This document shows, one piece after another, positions 2,068 through 55,030 of a stretch of DNA of 64,000 bases (position 1 is its first letter; each line of letters starts with the position of its first letter). A model generated the notes under the pieces. It saw only the letters and a program-made list of their open reading frames with translations. It made no database searches and was not told the DNA's origin. Both the position numbers and the translations under genes were made by a program. The stretch comes from Phycisphaerae bacterium (GTDB taxonomy: Bacteria; Planctomycetota; Phycisphaerae; UBA1845; PWPN01): the NCBI GenBank assembly GCA_035384605.1, contig DAOOIV010000006.1:9148-73147 (forward strand), in the 5' to 3' direction.

Positions 2068-3453
2068 CTACAACGTCGGCAACGTGTCGTCCGGGGTGTT
2101 GGCAGGCATACTCTGTCCCAGGAAATGCAGAAACTGGGTGCGCGTCAGGATCGGGATCGACAGCGACCGAGCTTCCTTGAGCATGGTCTCGAAAGCCGAT
2201 AGGCGTTTGGCCGCTTGCTCATTGCGCTCGGTGACGGCCGCCTCGTCTTCCGAGCCGGGGATGACCGGGACAGGGCCGGTCGGAGGTGAACCCACAACCA
2301 GGAAATCCGTATCGGTATCGACCTTGTTCACGACCTTGCCGCCAAGGCGGTCGATCAGCCGACTCACTTCCTTGCCGGCTATGTCTTCGGGGCGACCGTC
2401 AAAGTTCAAATCGAAGTCCCCGATGACCGCGAAGGTGAACTGGCGCGACCGATCGAAAACAGGGTTGGCGATAATATCGTTTACCAAGATCGGCTCGCCG
2501 GGCGTGCGTGAGGTCACGCGACATTCTGCCGTCGTCTCGAATACGTTGACGACCTCGATGGTTGCCTTGCCCTTTCCGTCAGTGGGGATGCCGCGAACAG
2601 GGGAATAGACCGAGAAGGTCATGCCCAGCCTGACCCCATCACTGCGGCCGAGGTCAATGTAAACGATGTCCCCGGCCGGCACTGTGCGGACGATCACGCC
2701 GTCCTTGACCTGGAGGGCTGAGCCGCTGCTGGAGGGCTTGAATTGCGCTAACTGGGCCAGCAGCCCCTCCGTCCGGTTTTTCTCGGCATTCAAGGTCTTC
2801 TCGGCCTCATCCCGGGCTTTGCGGGCGGCATCAAGTTCACCGGCCATCTGGTCGCGTTCTTTGGTGCGGGCAGCCTGGAGTTCGGCAAGCTGTCGGTTGC
2901 ACTCCTCACGGGACTGTTCGCTCTCTTGCATCAACTTCTTGAACTTCTCGTCCAGTTCGGCAACTCGGGTCTCGAAGGCCTTGGCGGCATCGTCTCTGGT
3001 CTTGACGGCCTGCTCAAGATCGTTGTTGAGCTTCTTGTGCTGAGCCTGAAGTTCGTCGGCCCGGCCGGCGGTTTTTTGATACAGGCTGAAAAGATTGTTC
3101 AGCATCGTGGCCACCGGCTGGTCGGCGGTGATTTTCGCATCCTTGACCTGCGGGTCATTGGCCACGGTTGTCCGGATCTCGTCAATCGCCGACTTGATCT
3201 CGGCCAGCGACTCGGCAGGTTTTCCGATGACCTCCTGGGCGACGTCGCTCAAGGCTTGTCGGGCGTCAGCGGCGGCCCTTTGCTGATCGCGGGCCTGCCG
3301 TTGGGCTTCGCTGGCGGTTGCCTCGAGGTCCGACTTTTGCGTAAACATGATGATGGTGAAGGTAATGGCGGCCACCGCTGCGACGGCAAAACCGATCGCC
3401 GCTGCTTTCAAGCCGCTCGATCCGACCGATCCTTGGGGCCTGGCCACTGCCAT
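2068..3453 (-). CDS. membrane-anchored coiled-coil protein with a C-terminal BRCT-like domain (family unknown)
   Basis: 461-aa ORF. N-terminal TM helix (AAAIGFAVAAVAAITFTIIMF). About 200 aa of Q/A/E/K/R-rich coiled-coil-like sequence. The C-terminus resembles a LigA-type BRCT (GGKVVNKVDTDTDFLVVG ... IPILTRTQFLHFL). Confidence 0.7.
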   Translation of the reverse strand: MAVARPQGSVGSSGLKAAAIGFAVAAVAAITFTIIMFTQKSDLEATASEAQRQARDQQRAAADARQALSDVAQEVIGKPAESLAEIKSAIDEIRTTVANDPQVKDAKITADQPVATMLNNLFSLYQKTAGRADELQAQHKKLNNDLEQAVKTRDDAAKAFETRVAELDEKFKKLMQESEQSREECNRQLAELQAARTKERDQMAGELDAARKARDEAEKTLNAEKNRTEGLLAQLAQFKPSSSGSALQVKDGVIVRTVPAGDIVYIDLGRSDGVRLGMTFSVYSPVRGIPTDGKGKATIEVVNVFETTAECRVTSRTPGEPILVNDIIANPVFDRSRQFTFAVIGDFDLNFDGRPEDIAGKEVSRLIDRLGGKVVNKVDTDTDFLVVGSPPTGPVPVIPGSEDEAAVTERNEQAAKRLSAFETMLKEARSLSIPILTRTQFLHFLGQSMPANTPDDTLPTL

Positions 3454-3761
3454 GATTCACTGCTCCGTTTCGACCGTTAGGCCCGACGTCGGGTGTCCAT
3501 GCCGTCCGGTCGGGCTCGGACGGGCCGCGAGGTTCGCCCGCTTCGATTGTCGGCACCGTGGTCCGAGGGAAGTCGATCCAGCCGGCTTTCATCTCGGCGT
3601 ACGGACGATTTCGAGGAGGGAACCACCTTCGGTCTCAGTGCCGGCAGAACGGCAGCCGCCTCGACTGCCGCCCGGCCACCTGCTCAGGCGGGTAGCCAAT
3701 CCGTCATTCTCGTTTCCGGGCATGGGCCTGTCAATGTCTCGTGGTCGACCAGGTGCCGCCC

Positions 3762-4130
3762 GGGTGCGTGACAGTCTGGGCGGGCATGCCGACCAGTCCA
3801 GGTTGGGCGATCAAGGCCCTTCAGCGGGTTTTCCCGCCGAAGGCGGGCTGATAGGCCGGCCGTTGTGCGGCCGGTTGGCGGTCGCCCGCGGTTCTTCCTC
3901 CTTTCTATGGTCTCAGCCCGTTTCAACAGGATTACCTGACAAGGACAGGCCCGTTAAAACGGGCTTGATGGGGTAGCACAGAGAAGGAGGAGTTGGTCGA
4001 CCGTGAACCAGTCGTCAAACGGCCGGCCTGTTTGTCCTTCGGGAAAGACCGCTGAAGCGGTCTGCTTCGGCTTGCGGTTCACGACAACCGGGTCAGCCGC
4101 GAGGACTGCCGCCGCTTCTGTCACGGGTCC
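3762..4130 (-). mobile_element. MITE-like TIR element, copy A (369 bp, carries an internal extra segment)
   Basis: Termini are GGGTGCGTGACAG ... CTGTCACGGGTCC (inverted). It is flanked by perfect direct repeats GTGCCGCCC at 3753..3761 and 4131..4139. Both arms are about 90-94% identical to the copy at 37682..37864, in reverse orientation. Confidence 0.8.
3862..4020. repeat. 159-bp segment present in MITE copy A but absent from copy B, bounded by GGCCGGCC on both sides (possible nested insertion)
   Basis: Alignment of copy A against copy B shows one gap. GGCCGGCC occurs at 3854..3861 and at 4021..4028. The segment ends GTTGTGCGGCCGG / CCAGTCGTCAAAC are weakly inverted (8 of 13). Confidence 0.4.
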
Positions 4131-4146
4131 GTGCCGCCCACGGCAG

Positions 4147-4180
4147 GGGTCCGTGACAGTTCGGGCAGGAGCCGGCCGTC
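4147..4180. repeat. truncated remnant of the same MITE end
   Basis: GGGTCCGTGACAG followed by about 24 nt that are roughly 70% similar to the arm starting at 3762. It lies 7 bp beyond the copy A TSD. Confidence 0.4.
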
Positions 4181-12003: not shown

Positions 12004-12702
12004 CTAATTCATCGATCCGAGCCGTGGCCAGCGGTCAAGATCCTTCTGACGGACGGTCATCACCTGCACCAGCGTGCGCAGTTCATGTGTAAGAATTCCG
12101 GCCCGTCGGATAGGATTCATCTCTTCCAGCAGTTGCTGTTTGAGCTCCACCATTTCGGCCGGCAGCAGAGCTGAGGCGACCCGGTCAACCAGCTCGCCCA
12201 GCGGCAGTTCGCTGTCAACGAGGTTTCTCACGCGTTGAATGACGTCGGTGGTCTCAATTTGCTCAAGGCCAAGGACAGCTCGCAGCGAGTTACGGGCGGC
12301 AAACTCGCCGTCGACCTCAATTCCCGAGCCCGTCGGTAGCATGGGGTCCAGCATGGCGATGCGGTACTCGCCGTCGCGATCTTCCTGGCGGACGCGAGCC
12401 CGGCAGAGCCCCAGCAGGTTGATGAAGTAGCGGCCGTCGGGGATCTGAACGTGATCGTTGATCCTGCCGACACAGACAACGGGGTAGATCTCGGCCCTGT
12501 TGGTGTGATAGACGGGTTCGTAACCCGGCCGCAACAGAGCCATGGCGATAATCCCTTGATCCTCAATGGCGTCCCTGACCATCGCCCGGTAGCGGTCTTC
12601 GAACACCTGCAACGGGAGGGTGCCGCCGGGCAGAAGCACGGCATTGGGCAAAGGGAAAAGCCCTACGGGCTCAGAAAAGGAAGGCAACTGACCTACGCTC
12701 AT
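12004..12702 (-). CDS. LON peptidase N-terminal (substrate-binding) domain protein
   Basis: LFPLPNAVLLPGGTLPLQVFEDRYRAMV is a typical LON N-domain start. The start is uncertain, since the ORF extends to 12750. Confidence 0.8.
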   Translation of the reverse strand: MSVGQLPSFSEPVGLFPLPNAVLLPGGTLPLQVFEDRYRAMVRDAIEDQGIIAMALLRPGYEPVYHTNRAEIYPVVCVGRINDHVQIPDGRYFINLLGLCRARVRQEDRDGEYRIAMLDPMLPTGSGIEVDGEFAARNSLRAVLGLEQIETTDVIQRVRNLVDSELPLGELVDRVASALLPAEMVELKQQLLEEMNPIRRAGILTHELRTLVQVMTVRQKDLDRWPRLGSMN

Positions 12703-32289: not shown

Positions 32290-32714
32290 CGGACGGGTTT
32301 CCGTCTCGCGCAAGGGTACCTGTGAACGGCGCTGTTGCTGAGTTCGTGACAGCCTGGGCGGATGGCGCGGCTGCCTTATGGTTTCGCCGCTCGCTTGCGG
32401 TCGAGGTTCTCAAAGAGGCCCCTGAGCCGTCACGGACCCCTGTGTTGGCCTGCCCAAACCAAGCGACAGCCGCCATCGTATGATGTAAGATACGTGGGCT
32501 TCGCGCTCGTCGTCCCGACGGCGAAGAAGCCGAGCTGGAACGGACCATCGAGACCTCCAAGGCTGCGGGGAATCGCTTCCAGCAGGTCAGCGACCCAAGC
32601 CGGCGGGGCCGACCTTGTCGAGTGGCACCAAGCTGGCCGGCGGCTGATCAGACCTTCGGGCCGGCGAGAGTAGTCGGCCGTGATGACCAATAGCCAGGGA
32701 GACAAACCGCGGAT

Positions 32715-36589: not shown

Positions 36590-37420
36590 CTAATCGTGCG
36601 TCGGGGCCCCGGCCGGTTCGGCCATCGGCTCCTCTCGCACTTCGTAGCCCGGCAGGCTGGGAAGATTGACCTCGCTGGCGGCCATGCCTTTGTTCAGTCG
36701 GACGTTGGAGAACGAGGCAACGATCTCCTGCTTGTCCTCCTTAGCCACCGTCGCAACCCGAACCGGTACGTCCAGCGTCCGGTCGATGTGGAAGTGGACT
36801 TTGCCGTAGCGGCGATCCAGTTCCGTTCCCGGCAACGGTGTGCATTCCAGGTGATCCGAGTTCGGCGGGTCTGTCGGGCCGGGAGCAACAAGCTTGATGG
36901 TGAAGTGACGAATGATGTCACCTTTCTTCTGGCCGAAGGGCATCGGGAAAGGCCCCTTGCCAATTCGGAAGAGATCTTCGGCCTTCTCGCCCGGTCCCAC
37001 GACTTCTCGCTTGATCACCTGTTTCGACCGCTCACGGACCTCGATGTACCACCGACCGTCAAAGACATGCCACTCCTTCTCTTTCTCGACCACCCCTTCG
37101 ACGATGCACTCATCGAAACGAATGAAGAATCGCGGGCTGGGCTTGTCTTCGATGAAACGAAGAACACCCTTGTACTTCTGCTCGTAATCGATTAAAGGGT
37201 CTTTCTTGATATACACCAGATCGGCCTGCACATCGCGCACATCCTTGTTCTCCAGCCGGTCGAGGATCTTCTCGACCGCCGGATCCAACGGCGCGGGTTG
37301 AGAGGCGGGCTCAGTTGCCGGGCGGCTCGCCGAAGGCCCCTCCTCGCGGCTTGCCTGCCCGCCGGAGGCACCGCAGATCAAACAAACCGCCGAGAAGCAC
37401 GCGATGAATCGTACACCCAT
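36590..37420 (-). CDS. LolA-like / outer-membrane lipoprotein-sorting fold protein
   Basis: Signal MGVRFIACFSAVCLICGASGG. The mature part (DLVYIKKDPLIDYEQKYKGVLRF ... WHVFDGRWYIEV) resembles LolA-like beta-barrel half-shell families. This is a fold-level guess only. Confidence 0.55.
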   Translation of the reverse strand: MGVRFIACFSAVCLICGASGGQASREEGPSASRPATEPASQPAPLDPAVEKILDRLENKDVRDVQADLVYIKKDPLIDYEQKYKGVLRFIEDKPSPRFFIRFDECIVEGVVEKEKEWHVFDGRWYIEVRERSKQVIKREVVGPGEKAEDLFRIGKGPFPMPFGQKKGDIIRHFTIKLVAPGPTDPPNSDHLECTPLPGTELDRRYGKVHFHIDRTLDVPVRVATVAKEDKQEIVASFSNVRLNKGMAASEVNLPSLPGYEVREEPMAEPAGAPTHD

Positions 37421-37681
37421 CGTCACAATCCTTTCAGAACCAAGATCTCGTGGCGACACACGCGCACCGGCCGCGCGCTCATCCCCCAGAATTGTAAATA
37501 CCGAGTGGCGGGGTAACAAGATCCGGGTGCACCCCGTTTTCGGTGGCGTTACGAAGGTAGGGTATGGTCAGAATCCGCGCAGCGCATGAGACCTGCCGAC
37601 GATTCTGTCTTACCCGCCGCAACCATCGACCGATGTCGCCACCGTTTCAGAAACATGCCCATAAGACTCGGATCACCGAAT

Positions 37682-37864
37682 GAGTCCGTGACAGAAGCGG
37701 CGGCACTCCTCGCGGCTGACCCGGTTGTCGTGAACGCAAGCCAGACCGCTTCAGCGGTCTTTCCCGAAGGGCAAAGAGGCCGCCTTTGGCGGGCAAACCC
37801 GCTGAAGGGCCTTGATCGCCCAACCTGGACCGGTCGGCATGCCCGCCGAGACTGTCACGCACCC
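37682..37864 (+). mobile_element. MITE-like TIR element, copy B (183 bp)
   Basis: Termini are GAGTCCGTGACAG ... CTGTCACGCACCC (11 of 13 inverted). It is flanked by perfect direct repeats TCACCGAAT at 37673..37681 and 37865..37873. The interior is hairpin-rich (for example AGACCGC-TTCA-GCGGTCT). Confidence 0.85.
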
Positions 37865-37987
37865 TCACCGAATCGCCCGCGGACCCTGTCGGCAAGGTCA
37901 GACAGTCTGAGCTTCCGCGCCCGTTGTTCACGAGGTACCATCTATCGGCAGCACACCACTGGGGCTTGCCGGCCAGTGCGCAATTGA

Positions 37988-38080
37988 CCTAAGCGGACCG
38001 CCTTTTTGCACGCCGCAGCTCAAGCGCACTGCGATCCAGAAGCATTCGAGCAGGCCGCACGGTTGTCGGGCCGTAAGGTT
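37988..38080 (+). repeat. ~94-bp intergenic repeat family, copy 1
   Basis: cctaagcggaccgcctttttgcacgccgcagctcaagcgcactgcgatccagaagcat...gccgcac-N8-ggccgtaaggtt aligns with the copies at 48638..48731 (reverse) and 54937..55030. Confidence 0.8.
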
Positions 38081-38119
38081 CTGTTAGAGGCGACACCGGC
38101 ATCAGTCGAAAGGAAGCCA

Positions 38120-38911
38120 ATGGAGTCGCGCAGTCTTCAACCACTACACGGTCGGACGGTCGCGGTCACCCGCATGCGTGATCAAGCGGACACTCTCGGC
38201 AGGTTCCTGCGGTCGGCCGGCGCGGAGGTGATCGAGGCCCCGACCATCGAACTCGGTCCGGTCGAGGACTACCGCAAGGTGGATGACGCCCTGCGACATC
38301 TCGATCGCTACCAGTGGCTGGTGCTCACCAGCGCCAACGGCGTCGACGCGATGTGTGACCGGATCAGGGCCATCGGGCTCGACACCCGCTGCCTGGCTCG
38401 GGTGAAGATCGCCGCGATCGGCTCTGCCACGGCCCGGCGGCTGACCGAACAAGGTGCGCGGCCAGACCTCGTGCCCCCCGAAGCGGTCGGTGAATCAATG
38501 GCCCAGGCACTGGTCGAACAGGGAGTGCGGGGCAGCCGCATCTTGCTGCTTGTGGCCGACATCGCCCGGACGCAACTGCCCGACGCGCTGCAAGCCGCCG
38601 GTGCCCAGTGCGACAGTCTGGCCATCTACCGGACCAAACGGCCTGCGGCCCTGCCTGCGGTCTTCGTTGAGCGACTCGATCGCGGCCAGATTGACTGGAT
38701 CACGCTGACCAGCCCGTCGTCGTTCGTCAACCTGTTGTGGTTGCTTGGGCCGCAGCACTGTGAGCGGTTGCACACCGTGGGCCTTGCCAGCATCGGTCCG
38801 GTCACCACACGGGCCATCCGCGAGGCCGGGTATTCGGTGGCCGCCGAGGCCGACCCACATGATATTCCCGGCTTGGTCTCGGCCATTATCGACGCCTCAA
38901 CGCGAGACTGA
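38120..38911 (+). CDS. hemD: uroporphyrinogen-III synthase
   Basis: LHGRTVAVTRMRDQADTLGRFLRSAGAEVIEAPTIEL, WLVLTSANGVDAM and WITLTSPSS show the two-lobe HemD pattern. The ATG at 38120 follows GAAAGGAAG. The upstream part of the ORF translates the repeat. Confidence 0.85.
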   Translation: MESRSLQPLHGRTVAVTRMRDQADTLGRFLRSAGAEVIEAPTIELGPVEDYRKVDDALRHLDRYQWLVLTSANGVDAMCDRIRAIGLDTRCLARVKIAAIGSATARRLTEQGARPDLVPPEAVGESMAQALVEQGVRGSRILLLVADIARTQLPDALQAAGAQCDSLAIYRTKRPAALPAVFVERLDRGQIDWITLTSPSSFVNLLWLLGPQHCERLHTVGLASIGPVTTRAIREAGYSVAAEADPHDIPGLVSAIIDASTRD

Positions 38912-48392: not shown

Positions 48393-48637
48393 GATTCGGG
48401 CTGCCGCAGGGGTCATCCCTCGCCATCGAGCATCACCGCATGTCGGGCGCTCTTGAGCAGCCAAACGATCTTTTCCGCGAGTCTCGAAGCGGCAGGAACA
48501 ACCGGCAGCTAAGCAGACGCCTTCAAAACCGGCGGAAAATCGACGGTTTTCCAGCGAATGCCCGATACAGTCCGGCATATTCAGGGGCCGTTTTGCCGGG
48601 TACAGGGACGGCGTCCAACGCCCCGGAAGGACCTTGG

Positions 48638-48731
48638 AACCTCACGGCCAGACGTCTGTGCGGCTTGCGCACATGTCTCTGGATCGCAGTGCGCTTGGGT
48701 TGCGGCCCACCAAAAGGCGGACCGCCTTAGG
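48638..48731 (-). repeat. ~94-bp intergenic repeat family, copy 2 (reverse orientation)
   Basis: The reverse complement reads cctaaggcggtccgccttttggtgggccgcaacccaagcgcactgcgatccagagacatgtgcgcaagccgcac-agacgtct-ggccgtgaggtt. It contains the perfect palindrome AAGGCGG-T-CCGCCTT. Confidence 0.8.
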
Positions 48732-48913
48732 ATTGCCACGGAACGACCATGTCCTCCTGTGAAAACCCTTGATAAAACTTGCTTGCGTGTCATCGGCCAC
48801 AAAAAAATCCAATATTTTCAAGGGTTTTCGCTGGACGAACCGACAAAAGGTCAGTAATATTCGTCACAAATCGGGCCGGTGGGCGGCCCGGGTCTTTTGC
48901 AAGGAGGTTTGTA

Positions 48914-54717: not shown

Positions 54718-54936
54718 CGATCCTGCTCGTGCCTACCTGTGACCGTGATACCACCCGGCCGCCAGAGACAAAGGTACACGATCCGCGGCAAGGCGTAAAT
54801 GCGGGAGGGTCCGCGCCCACAAGCCGGAATCCGGGACCAGCGAACGGAAATCATCGAACCGGCAACTTGGCCCGGGGCGGTACCATGGGGCTCAGGGGTT
54901 GGGATACCTCGCCGCCGCAGTGCCTCTCTGGACAAA

Positions 54937-55030
54937 CATAAGGCAGACCGCCTTTTTGCGGGCCGCAACCCAAGTGCTCTGCGATCGAGAAACATGCGCG
55001 CAAGCCGCACCCCTCTCTGGCCGTAAGGTT
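54937..55030 (+). repeat. ~94-bp intergenic repeat family, copy 3
   Basis: cataaggcagaccgcctttttgcgggccgcaacccaagtgctctgcgatcgagaaacatgcgcgcaagccgcac-ccctctct-ggccgtaaggtt. Confidence 0.8.

Follow-up and report, generated by a model that had tools for sequence, protein, structure and literature searches.

Results

Short inverted-repeat elements with target-site duplications

Upstream of a gene encoding HemD (Pfam HEM4), the 64,000-nucleotide stretch of Phycisphaerae DNA analyzed in this work (hereafter, the window) carries a 183-bp segment at positions 37682–37864 (plus strand; L end at 37682, R end at 37864) that starts with GAGTCCGTGACAG and ends with CTGTCACGCACCC, 11 of 13 positions being inverted. 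The inverted match continues on both arms as CGTGACAG-N3-CGGCGG, and the interior contains the hairpin AGACCGC-TTCA-GCGGTCT. The L-end terminal inverted repeat (37682–37705, plus strand) reads GAGTCCGTGACAGAAGCGGCGGCA, the family consensus being GGGCCCGTGACAGAAGCGGCGGCA, and the R-end repeat (37841–37864) reads GGGTGCGTGACAGTCTCGGCGGGC on the minus strand. The segment is bracketed by a perfect pair of the 9-mer TCACCGAAT, read directly at 37673–37681 and 37865–37873, and these are the left and right target-site duplications of a short-form element, copy A, as delineated from the sequence, an alignment, and metagenome contigs. A 369-bp long form, copy B, lies at 3762–4130 on the minus strand, in the orientation opposite to copy A, and is flanked by a different 9-mer, GTGCCGCCC, on the left (3753–3761) and on the right (4131–4139). 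The chance of a perfect 9/9 flanking repeat is about 4e-6 per site (4^-9). The terminal inverted repeats of the two copies are 22–24 bp long (GGGYNCGTGACAG-N3-SGGCGG), and their alignment revealed that copy B corresponds to copy A with an additional palindromic interior of about 180 bp. On rereading, every feature that the initial annotation had assigned to the 183-bp segment was confirmed (its positions, the 11/13 ends, the CGGCGG extension, the hairpin, and the perfect duplication), as was the second copy with a duplication of its own.

A 22-nt terminus pattern (at most three mismatches) matched the window seven times versus 0.16 expected, and the matches correspond to both ends of A, of B, and of a 100-bp element C (32340–32439, plus strand), together with a solo terminus, D. 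Element C has the same termini (GAGTTCGTGACAG ... CGTCACGGACCC), an unrelated interior, and a decayed duplication; a diverged counterpart is present in one relative (L048) and absent in another (L049). Adjoining C at 32440–32480, upstream of a P-type ATPase gene, is a block, CCCAAACCA(A/G/C)GCGACAGCCGCC(A/G)TCGTATGATGTAAGAT, that is conserved in these three lineages (window, L048, and L049), while everything upstream of it differs; judged from this conservation, the block is probably the promoter of the ATPase gene. Terminus D (GGGTCCGTGACAGTTCGGGCAGG, 4147–4170, plus strand) is located 16 nt past the end of copy B, and no partner end was identified for it. A D-like terminus is also present (505–556) beside a diverged B-like copy in the 556-bp contig L050, where terminus-like sequences are found within 6–8 nt on both sides of the copy and there is no duplication. 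The elements seem to occur in end-to-end clusters. A further element of 183 bp, with degenerate versions of the termini (GCGCCCGTGATAG ... GTGTCACGGACCC), a different interior, and no recognizable duplication, occupies positions 12396–12578 of L023, 116 bp from an A-type copy. A repeat of about 92 nt (CCTAAGGCGGACCGCCTTTTTGCGGGCCGC...GGCCGTAAGGTT), unrelated to these elements and with no Rfam match, has three copies in the window with 80–83% identity (37993–38081 and 54933–55030 on the plus strand, 48637–48735 on the minus strand); since L034, L035, and L039 lack the copy immediately upstream of hemD, that copy is also an insertion.

A dispersed family with two size classes

Matches to the window were found among contigs of several metagenome assemblies (JGI, ENA/NCBI, and Logan). 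JGI/ENA metagenome contigs were scanned with a single 23-mer taken from the R end, which yielded 14 stretches representing at least 12 distinct loci. Several of the contigs bearing the element share both their samples and their coverage with the window's own contig, and the hemD-locus copy A was found to be identical in three other metagenome contigs (assemblies from JGI and ENA/NCBI). The terminal inverted repeats are conserved in all copies, which differ by 5–16% from one another and reside in unrelated flanks. Among nine full copies, the flanking duplication is perfect (9/9) in four, 8/9 in two, about 7/9 in two, and missing from one (L028), so that the further copies with 9-bp duplications of their own that the initial annotation proposed to look for do exist. 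The perfect 9-mers are TCACCGAAT, GTGCCGCCC, CTGAACGGA, and CTTGTGCAG (copies oriented first). Two size classes were distinguished, a long one of 355–369 bp (six loci), to which copy B belongs, and a less common short one of 183–190 bp (three loci). All three short copies, though located at different loci with different flanks and duplications, share one identical internal deletion junction, which indicates that the deletion occurred once and that the short form transposed afterwards. Furthermore, the inner 180 bp of the long form was never found alone. We therefore prefer to regard the short form as an internal-deletion derivative of the long form that itself transposed, and for the same reason disfavor the reverse possibility, that the long form is a short form with a nested element.

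No reading frame is conserved among the copies, whose sizes are 100–369 bp, and a comparison of one frame of copy B with 5.8 billion proteins retrieved only two small called ORFs, both from other copies. A, B, C, and E (an element described below), translated in six frames and concatenated into one query, gave no match, though this query was probably swamped by low-complexity candidates. An internal 19-mer matched genome contigs of GTDB species representatives nine times, each time singly, in unrelated sequence and without extending, so that the host is not one of these representatives; BLASTN of copy B against PLSDB gave short chance matches only; and three terminus patterns searched in IMG/VR produced 0–7 matches, none of which extended past the pattern. 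No Rfam family matched anywhere in the window at gathering score, and at E ≤ 1 the only match around either copy reached 16.6 bits, the gathering score of that family being 178 bits.

Empty site and independent insertions upstream of hemD

The hemD locus of relatives was fetched via HemD homologues; those at 85% identity derive from metagenome-assembled genomes named Planctomycetes or Phycisphaerae. Contig L039, whose HemD is 89% identical, carries no copy A and has a single TCACCGAAa (TCACCGAAA) in its place, reading ...GGCAACAAGATCACAATCACCGAAACGCCCATGGACCC.... This clean empty site (...ACAAGATCACAATCACCGAAACGCCC...) is of the kind that the initial annotation had suggested seeking in relatives upstream of hemD. 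Logan contig L014 (1–766), considered as a rearranged or empty hemD site, turned out to be a chimera instead, in which the upstream flank of a truncated 59-bp copy (L020, 4733–4791) is joined through that copy to the hemD flank of copy A.

Three further relatives (L034, L035, and L037; HemD 85% identical) carry an element E, with the shared termini (GGGGCCGTGACAG ... CTGTCACGCACC) around an interior of unrelated sequence. It sits 12 nt upstream of the site of copy A, at ACAAGATCA, with an 8/9 duplication in L037. On exactly this 9-mer, which is empty in L039, the window carries segment F (37525–37660), a lineage-specific insert of 136 bp with GGG-N13-CGGTGGCG at both ends, flanks ACAAGATCC / ATAAGACTC (6/9), and no GTGACAG core; it is probably a decayed member of the same superfamily. 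The possibility that F is a diverged ortholog of E was rejected, as the two show no similarity above shuffles. Hence, one 9-bp target has been hit independently in two lineages, by E and by F, and, with A only 12 nt away, a single stretch of 21 nt, still empty in L039, has received A, E, and F in different lineages. The size of E varies from 467 bp in L037 (2547–3013) to 275 bp in L034 (3593–3867), and the extra ~190 bp in L037 include an 85-nt stretch weakly similar to the B-type interior (nhmmer E = 4e-5), a resemblance that suggests nesting or exchange between element types. In the L037 contig, E and hemD are separated by about 800 additional bp (3060–3830) that the window, L034, and L039 lack; two small ORFs called there, of 46 and 115 amino acids, have no Pfam match.

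Placement relative to genes and promoter-like motifs

Of ten insertion sites for which both neighbors are known, eight lie between divergent genes, compared with a background of 22% in the window (P ~2e-4), and the remaining two lie upstream of one gene. Alignment of the outward flanks, anchored on the element ends, brought out a sigma-70-like motif that points away from the element and whose −35 hexamer starts 26–28 nt out, that is, after the 9-bp duplication plus 17–19 nt. With strict criteria, TTGnnn-16/17-TAnnnT was present at this distance in six flanks, and with relaxed ones in eight. The −35 start is 27 nt from the R end of copy B (TTGACA-17-GAGAAT; 3706–3734, minus strand, toward a gene for 461 amino acids), of the copies in L032 (TTGACA with a poor −10) and L028 (TTGGAC-17-TATGCT), and of E in L037 (TGGATC-17-TAGGCT). 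At L ends, it is 27 nt away in L028 (TTGTTG-17-TAGACT), L022 (TTGCCC-17-TATACT), and L030 (TGGGCG-16-TACAAT) and 28 nt away in L024 (TTGGAA-17-TACCCT). All six strict flanks fall within one 3-nt window, which random rotation of the flanks reached in 2 of 2000 trials (P = 0.001); these statistics comprise 25 flanks, from 11 complete elements and three ends of truncated or cut copies, and are based on consensus matching in a phylum with uncharacterized promoters. The motifs face gene 5′ ends wherever the neighbor is known (the R-end motif of L028 faces the contig end), and the ~18-nt spacers between element end and motif have no other sequence in common. Both element ends face motifs and both orientations occur. 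The long-form copy in L028 (178–545) has no duplication, yet a promoter-like motif is found 27 nt from each of its ends; such flanks would be expected if two copies inserted at different promoters had undergone homologous recombination.

Copy A differs in its spacing. The only promoter-like site detected by a promoter scan within 37300–38250 is TTGTTA-17-TACAAT at 37491–37519 (minus strand), which points toward a gene for 276 amino acids and is conserved in L034, L037, and L039. Prior to the arrival of F, copy A had its L end 17 nt upstream of the −35 of this motif. In the L039-like ancestral arrangement, copy A would stand 17 nt from TTGTTG-17-TACAAT and, on the hemD side, 15 nt from TGGACC-17-TAGTCT. 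Both distances fall within the published window of 14–18 nt (see below), as may that of element C, at 16 nt. With 26–28 nt for most copies and 15–17 nt for A, the spacing seems to fall into two registers that differ by about one helical turn. Three loci fit neither register, namely L023 (33 nt), L029 (19–21 nt), and L033 (no motif). Taken from these alignments, the promoter-register placement is likely to be real.

Search for a transposase

In agreement with the initial annotation, no transposase domain was detected in the window, where Pfam was applied to the central 20 kb and to all other ORFs of at least 150 amino acids. When the ISCasp3 transposase was compared by TBLASTN with 460 kb of related contigs, no coding sequence of ISKra4 type was found, and in no locus collected are two paired termini separated by more than 700 bp. 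The initial annotation had thought it worth seeking a longer element that has these termini and carries a transposase; none was found in the window, the 460 kb of related contigs, PLSDB, or IMG/VR. Since neither the copies nor their surroundings encode a transposase, this enzyme must act in trans.

The 9-bp target duplication implies that the target cuts are staggered by 9 nt. Together with ends of the form GGG...CCC, it led us to compare the family with the prokaryotic Mutator-like elements surveyed by Guerillot et al. 2014 (PMC3942029), where 18–39-bp inverted repeats and 8–9-bp direct repeats are described. According to that survey, TnGBS/ISLre2 and the ISKra4 group choose sites 14–18 nt upstream from the −35 box of sigma-A promoters, either orientation being used by ISKra4-group members with near-symmetric repeats. 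Planctomycetes are among the bacteria for which it records the wider p-MULT 4 family that includes this group. The R end of the present elements is GGGTGCGTGACAG and the L end GGGCCCGTGACAG. The ISKra4-group ends given in Table S1 of the survey are GGGTGCGGCTC (ISCasp3), GGGTGCGACTC (ISCasp2), GGGTGCATTTAA (ISAcce1), GGGTGCAGTCG (ISBeg3), and GGGCGTAGCC (ISAcas3), so that ISCasp2 and ISCasp3 start with GGGTGCG, ISAcce1 and ISBeg3 with GGGTGCA, and ISAcas3 with GGGCGTA; wherever a repeat length is recorded for the group in that table, it is 9 bp (PMC3942029). The first 7 nt of our R end, GGGTGCG, are thus common to ISCasp2 and ISCasp3, the shared motif being only 6–7 nt long. We confirmed the 9-bp repeat of ISCasp3 directly in NC_019752.1, which reads ATATGATTT, then GGGTGCGG...GCACCC, then ATATGATTT again. 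Among the table entries of Guerillot et al. that were compared (PMC3942029), no insertion sequence ends in ..CACG(G/C)ACCC, and no clear inverted repeats could be delineated for high-GC ISKra4-family copies on Streptomyces plasmids. On these terminal similarities, the chances that the parent element is ISKra4-like may be put at about even.

Discussion

The elements described here are non-autonomous DNA transposons (MITEs) of an uncultured Phycisphaerae (Planctomycetota) bacterium from anaerobic-digester-type metagenomes, and we are highly confident that they are mobilized in trans. The MITE reading of the initial annotation has been strengthened by further copies, an empty site, the lack of an Rfam match, and the lack of a transposase in the window. 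The folding of copies A and B, far better than that of shuffled sequences (z = −4.7 and z = −9.0, respectively), and their location in regulatory regions could also be expected of a non-mobile, conserved structured RNA or a REP/BIME-like regulatory repeat, in which case the flanking 9-mers would belong to the motif or match by coincidence. However, inverted repeats and a palindromic interior give strong folding anyway, the 9-bp repeat is different at each locus, a close relative, L039, differs by the precise presence or absence of the element, and no Rfam family matches, which makes either of these, including the conserved RNA that the initial annotation had named as a potential refutation, very improbable. 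Still less credence can be given to an assembly artefact or to segmental duplication by recombination not involving transposition. Four contigs (L013, L019, L026, and L031) do break inside the element and L014 is chimeric through it, but breaks at repeats are what a real multicopy element is expected to cause; moreover, the hemD-locus copy is identical in three further assemblies (JGI, ENA/NCBI), and the copies are 5–16% divergent and stand in unrelated flanks.

As to the mechanism, each copy consists only of two terminal inverted repeats of about 24 bp around a hairpin-rich, non-coding interior, and the transposase, encoded elsewhere and acting in trans, would be a Mutator-superfamily DDE enzyme of the ISKra4 group. 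Like that of ISKra4-group insertion sequences, this enzyme would steer integration to a set distance upstream of sigma-70-type promoters, so that, whichever way the element is oriented, its end and the start of the −35 hexamer come to lie about 27 or about 16 nt apart. Steered in this way, copies would accumulate in 5′ intergenic regions, especially between divergent genes, and insertions would leave genes and core promoters unbroken. The 183-bp form would have arisen from the ~360-bp form through one internal deletion, with transposition continuing thereafter. The evidence gives good support to integration being steered to a fixed distance from promoter-like DNA and moderate support to the ISKra4-like nature of the enzyme. 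Taken as one explanation, the combination of a trans-mobilized MITE, an ISKra4-group Mutator-like transposase, and promoter-upstream steering is the one toward which we lean, if only slightly.

A genuine MITE that inserts essentially at random could also be mobilized by a transposase from a different family (IS256, IS1, the IS903 group of IS5, or the IS10 and IS50 groups of IS4), the promoter pattern then being a matter of survivorship, with insertions in genes or terminators purged. The terminal sequences of IS1, IS903, IS10, and IS50 are different from those seen here. The ends of IS1113 (GGGTCTGTCAAG / GAGTCTGTAAAT), a member of the IS256 family (p-MULT 1), follow G(G/A)GTCTGT.., resembling GGGTCYGTGACAG about as closely as ISKra4 members do, and IS256 elements make 8–9-bp repeats (PMC3942029). 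In addition, no parent element was found in our searches, the sample contains few insertion sites, the dominant register of 26–28 nt differs from the published 14–18 nt, and selection against genic insertions could account for part of the intergenic bias. On the other hand, neither survivorship nor such selection predicts a fixed register only 3 nt wide (P = 0.001), and survivorship does not predict the repeated use of one 9-mer in different lineages or the excess of insertions between divergent genes, a location that, if anything, carries more risk. The repeats are 8 bp long in many IS256 members but 9 bp in every copy that could be scored here, and IS256 insertion is reported in the same survey as random relative to promoters (PMC3942029), whereas the placement here is non-random. 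For these reasons, we consider a transposase of another family combined with random insertion to be an appreciable, though the less probable, alternative to promoter-directed integration by an ISKra4-like enzyme.

Like bacterial MITEs in general, the elements are small (100–370 bp), have terminal inverted repeats, a duplication of fixed length, hairpin potential, and no coding capacity, occur in many dispersed copies that are polymorphic for insertion between relatives, and include size variants produced by internal deletion. They depart from such MITEs in that unrelated interiors (A/B, C, E, F, and the second element of L023) share one pair of termini, in their non-random placement relative to promoters, and in that no cognate insertion sequence was found in our searches. 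The small, non-autonomous, Tn3-derived TIMEs likewise have ends starting with a G run, but their repeats are about 38 bp and their duplications 5 bp long, as compared with 9 bp here. With ISCasp2, ISCasp3, and other ISKra4-group members as presented in the tables and text of Guerillot et al. (PMC3942029), the family shares GGGTGCG/GGGTGCA starts, 9-bp direct repeats, inverted repeats (about 18–31 bp in that group), and, probably, insertion upstream of sigma-A-type promoters in both orientations. These insertion sequences are 1.4–2 kb in size and encode transposases of 440–550 amino acids, whereas the window elements encode nothing. Past the first 7 nt, the repeats differ (here they contain a GTGACAG core and a CGGCGG box), and the main register is 26–28 nt instead of the 14–18 nt stated there, which only A and possibly C would fit (PMC3942029). 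TnGBS and ISLre2 (p-MULT 3) similarly generate 8–9-bp repeats and integrate 15–17 nt upstream of the −35 box, leaving genes and promoters intact. Unlike the present small elements, however, they are large ICEs or 1.5–2-kb insertion sequences of Firmicutes, they insert in one orientation relative to the promoter, and their termini, as far as the ISLde1 ends listed in the survey represent them, do not start with GGG.

The MITE class is well known and this family is itself ordinary in kind; the interesting part is the pattern of its placement. What is new here are the other small elements sharing the termini, the bias toward divergent genes, the promoter-like motifs in a common register, the ancestral spacing of copy A at 15 and 17 nt from two such motifs, and the reused 9-bp target. 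Taken as a plain MITE, the family has an importance limited mostly to annotation, where it explains contig breaks, a chimeric contig, and spurious small ORFs in digester metagenomes as well as lineage-specific changes in promoter regions, e.g., upstream of hemD. To our knowledge, TnGBS, ISLre2, and some ISKra4 insertion sequences are the only elements known to target sites upstream of promoters. We suggest, tentatively and with somewhat less than even confidence, that this is the first MITE superfamily to have inherited promoter-directed integration from an ISKra4-type transposase, with two helically phased registers (about 16 and 27 nt), repeated independent hits of promoter-proximal 9-mers, and a pile-up between divergent genes. 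If this is true, an abundant short derivative with a second register 10–11 nt further out would provide many natural insertion sites and a minimal substrate with which to ask whether the transposase reads the sigma factor or RNA polymerase on one face of the helix. The elements would then be a natural, sequence-minimal reporter of a transposase reading promoter-bound RNA polymerase or promoter DNA geometry, and they would mark promoters in a phylum in which these are poorly defined.
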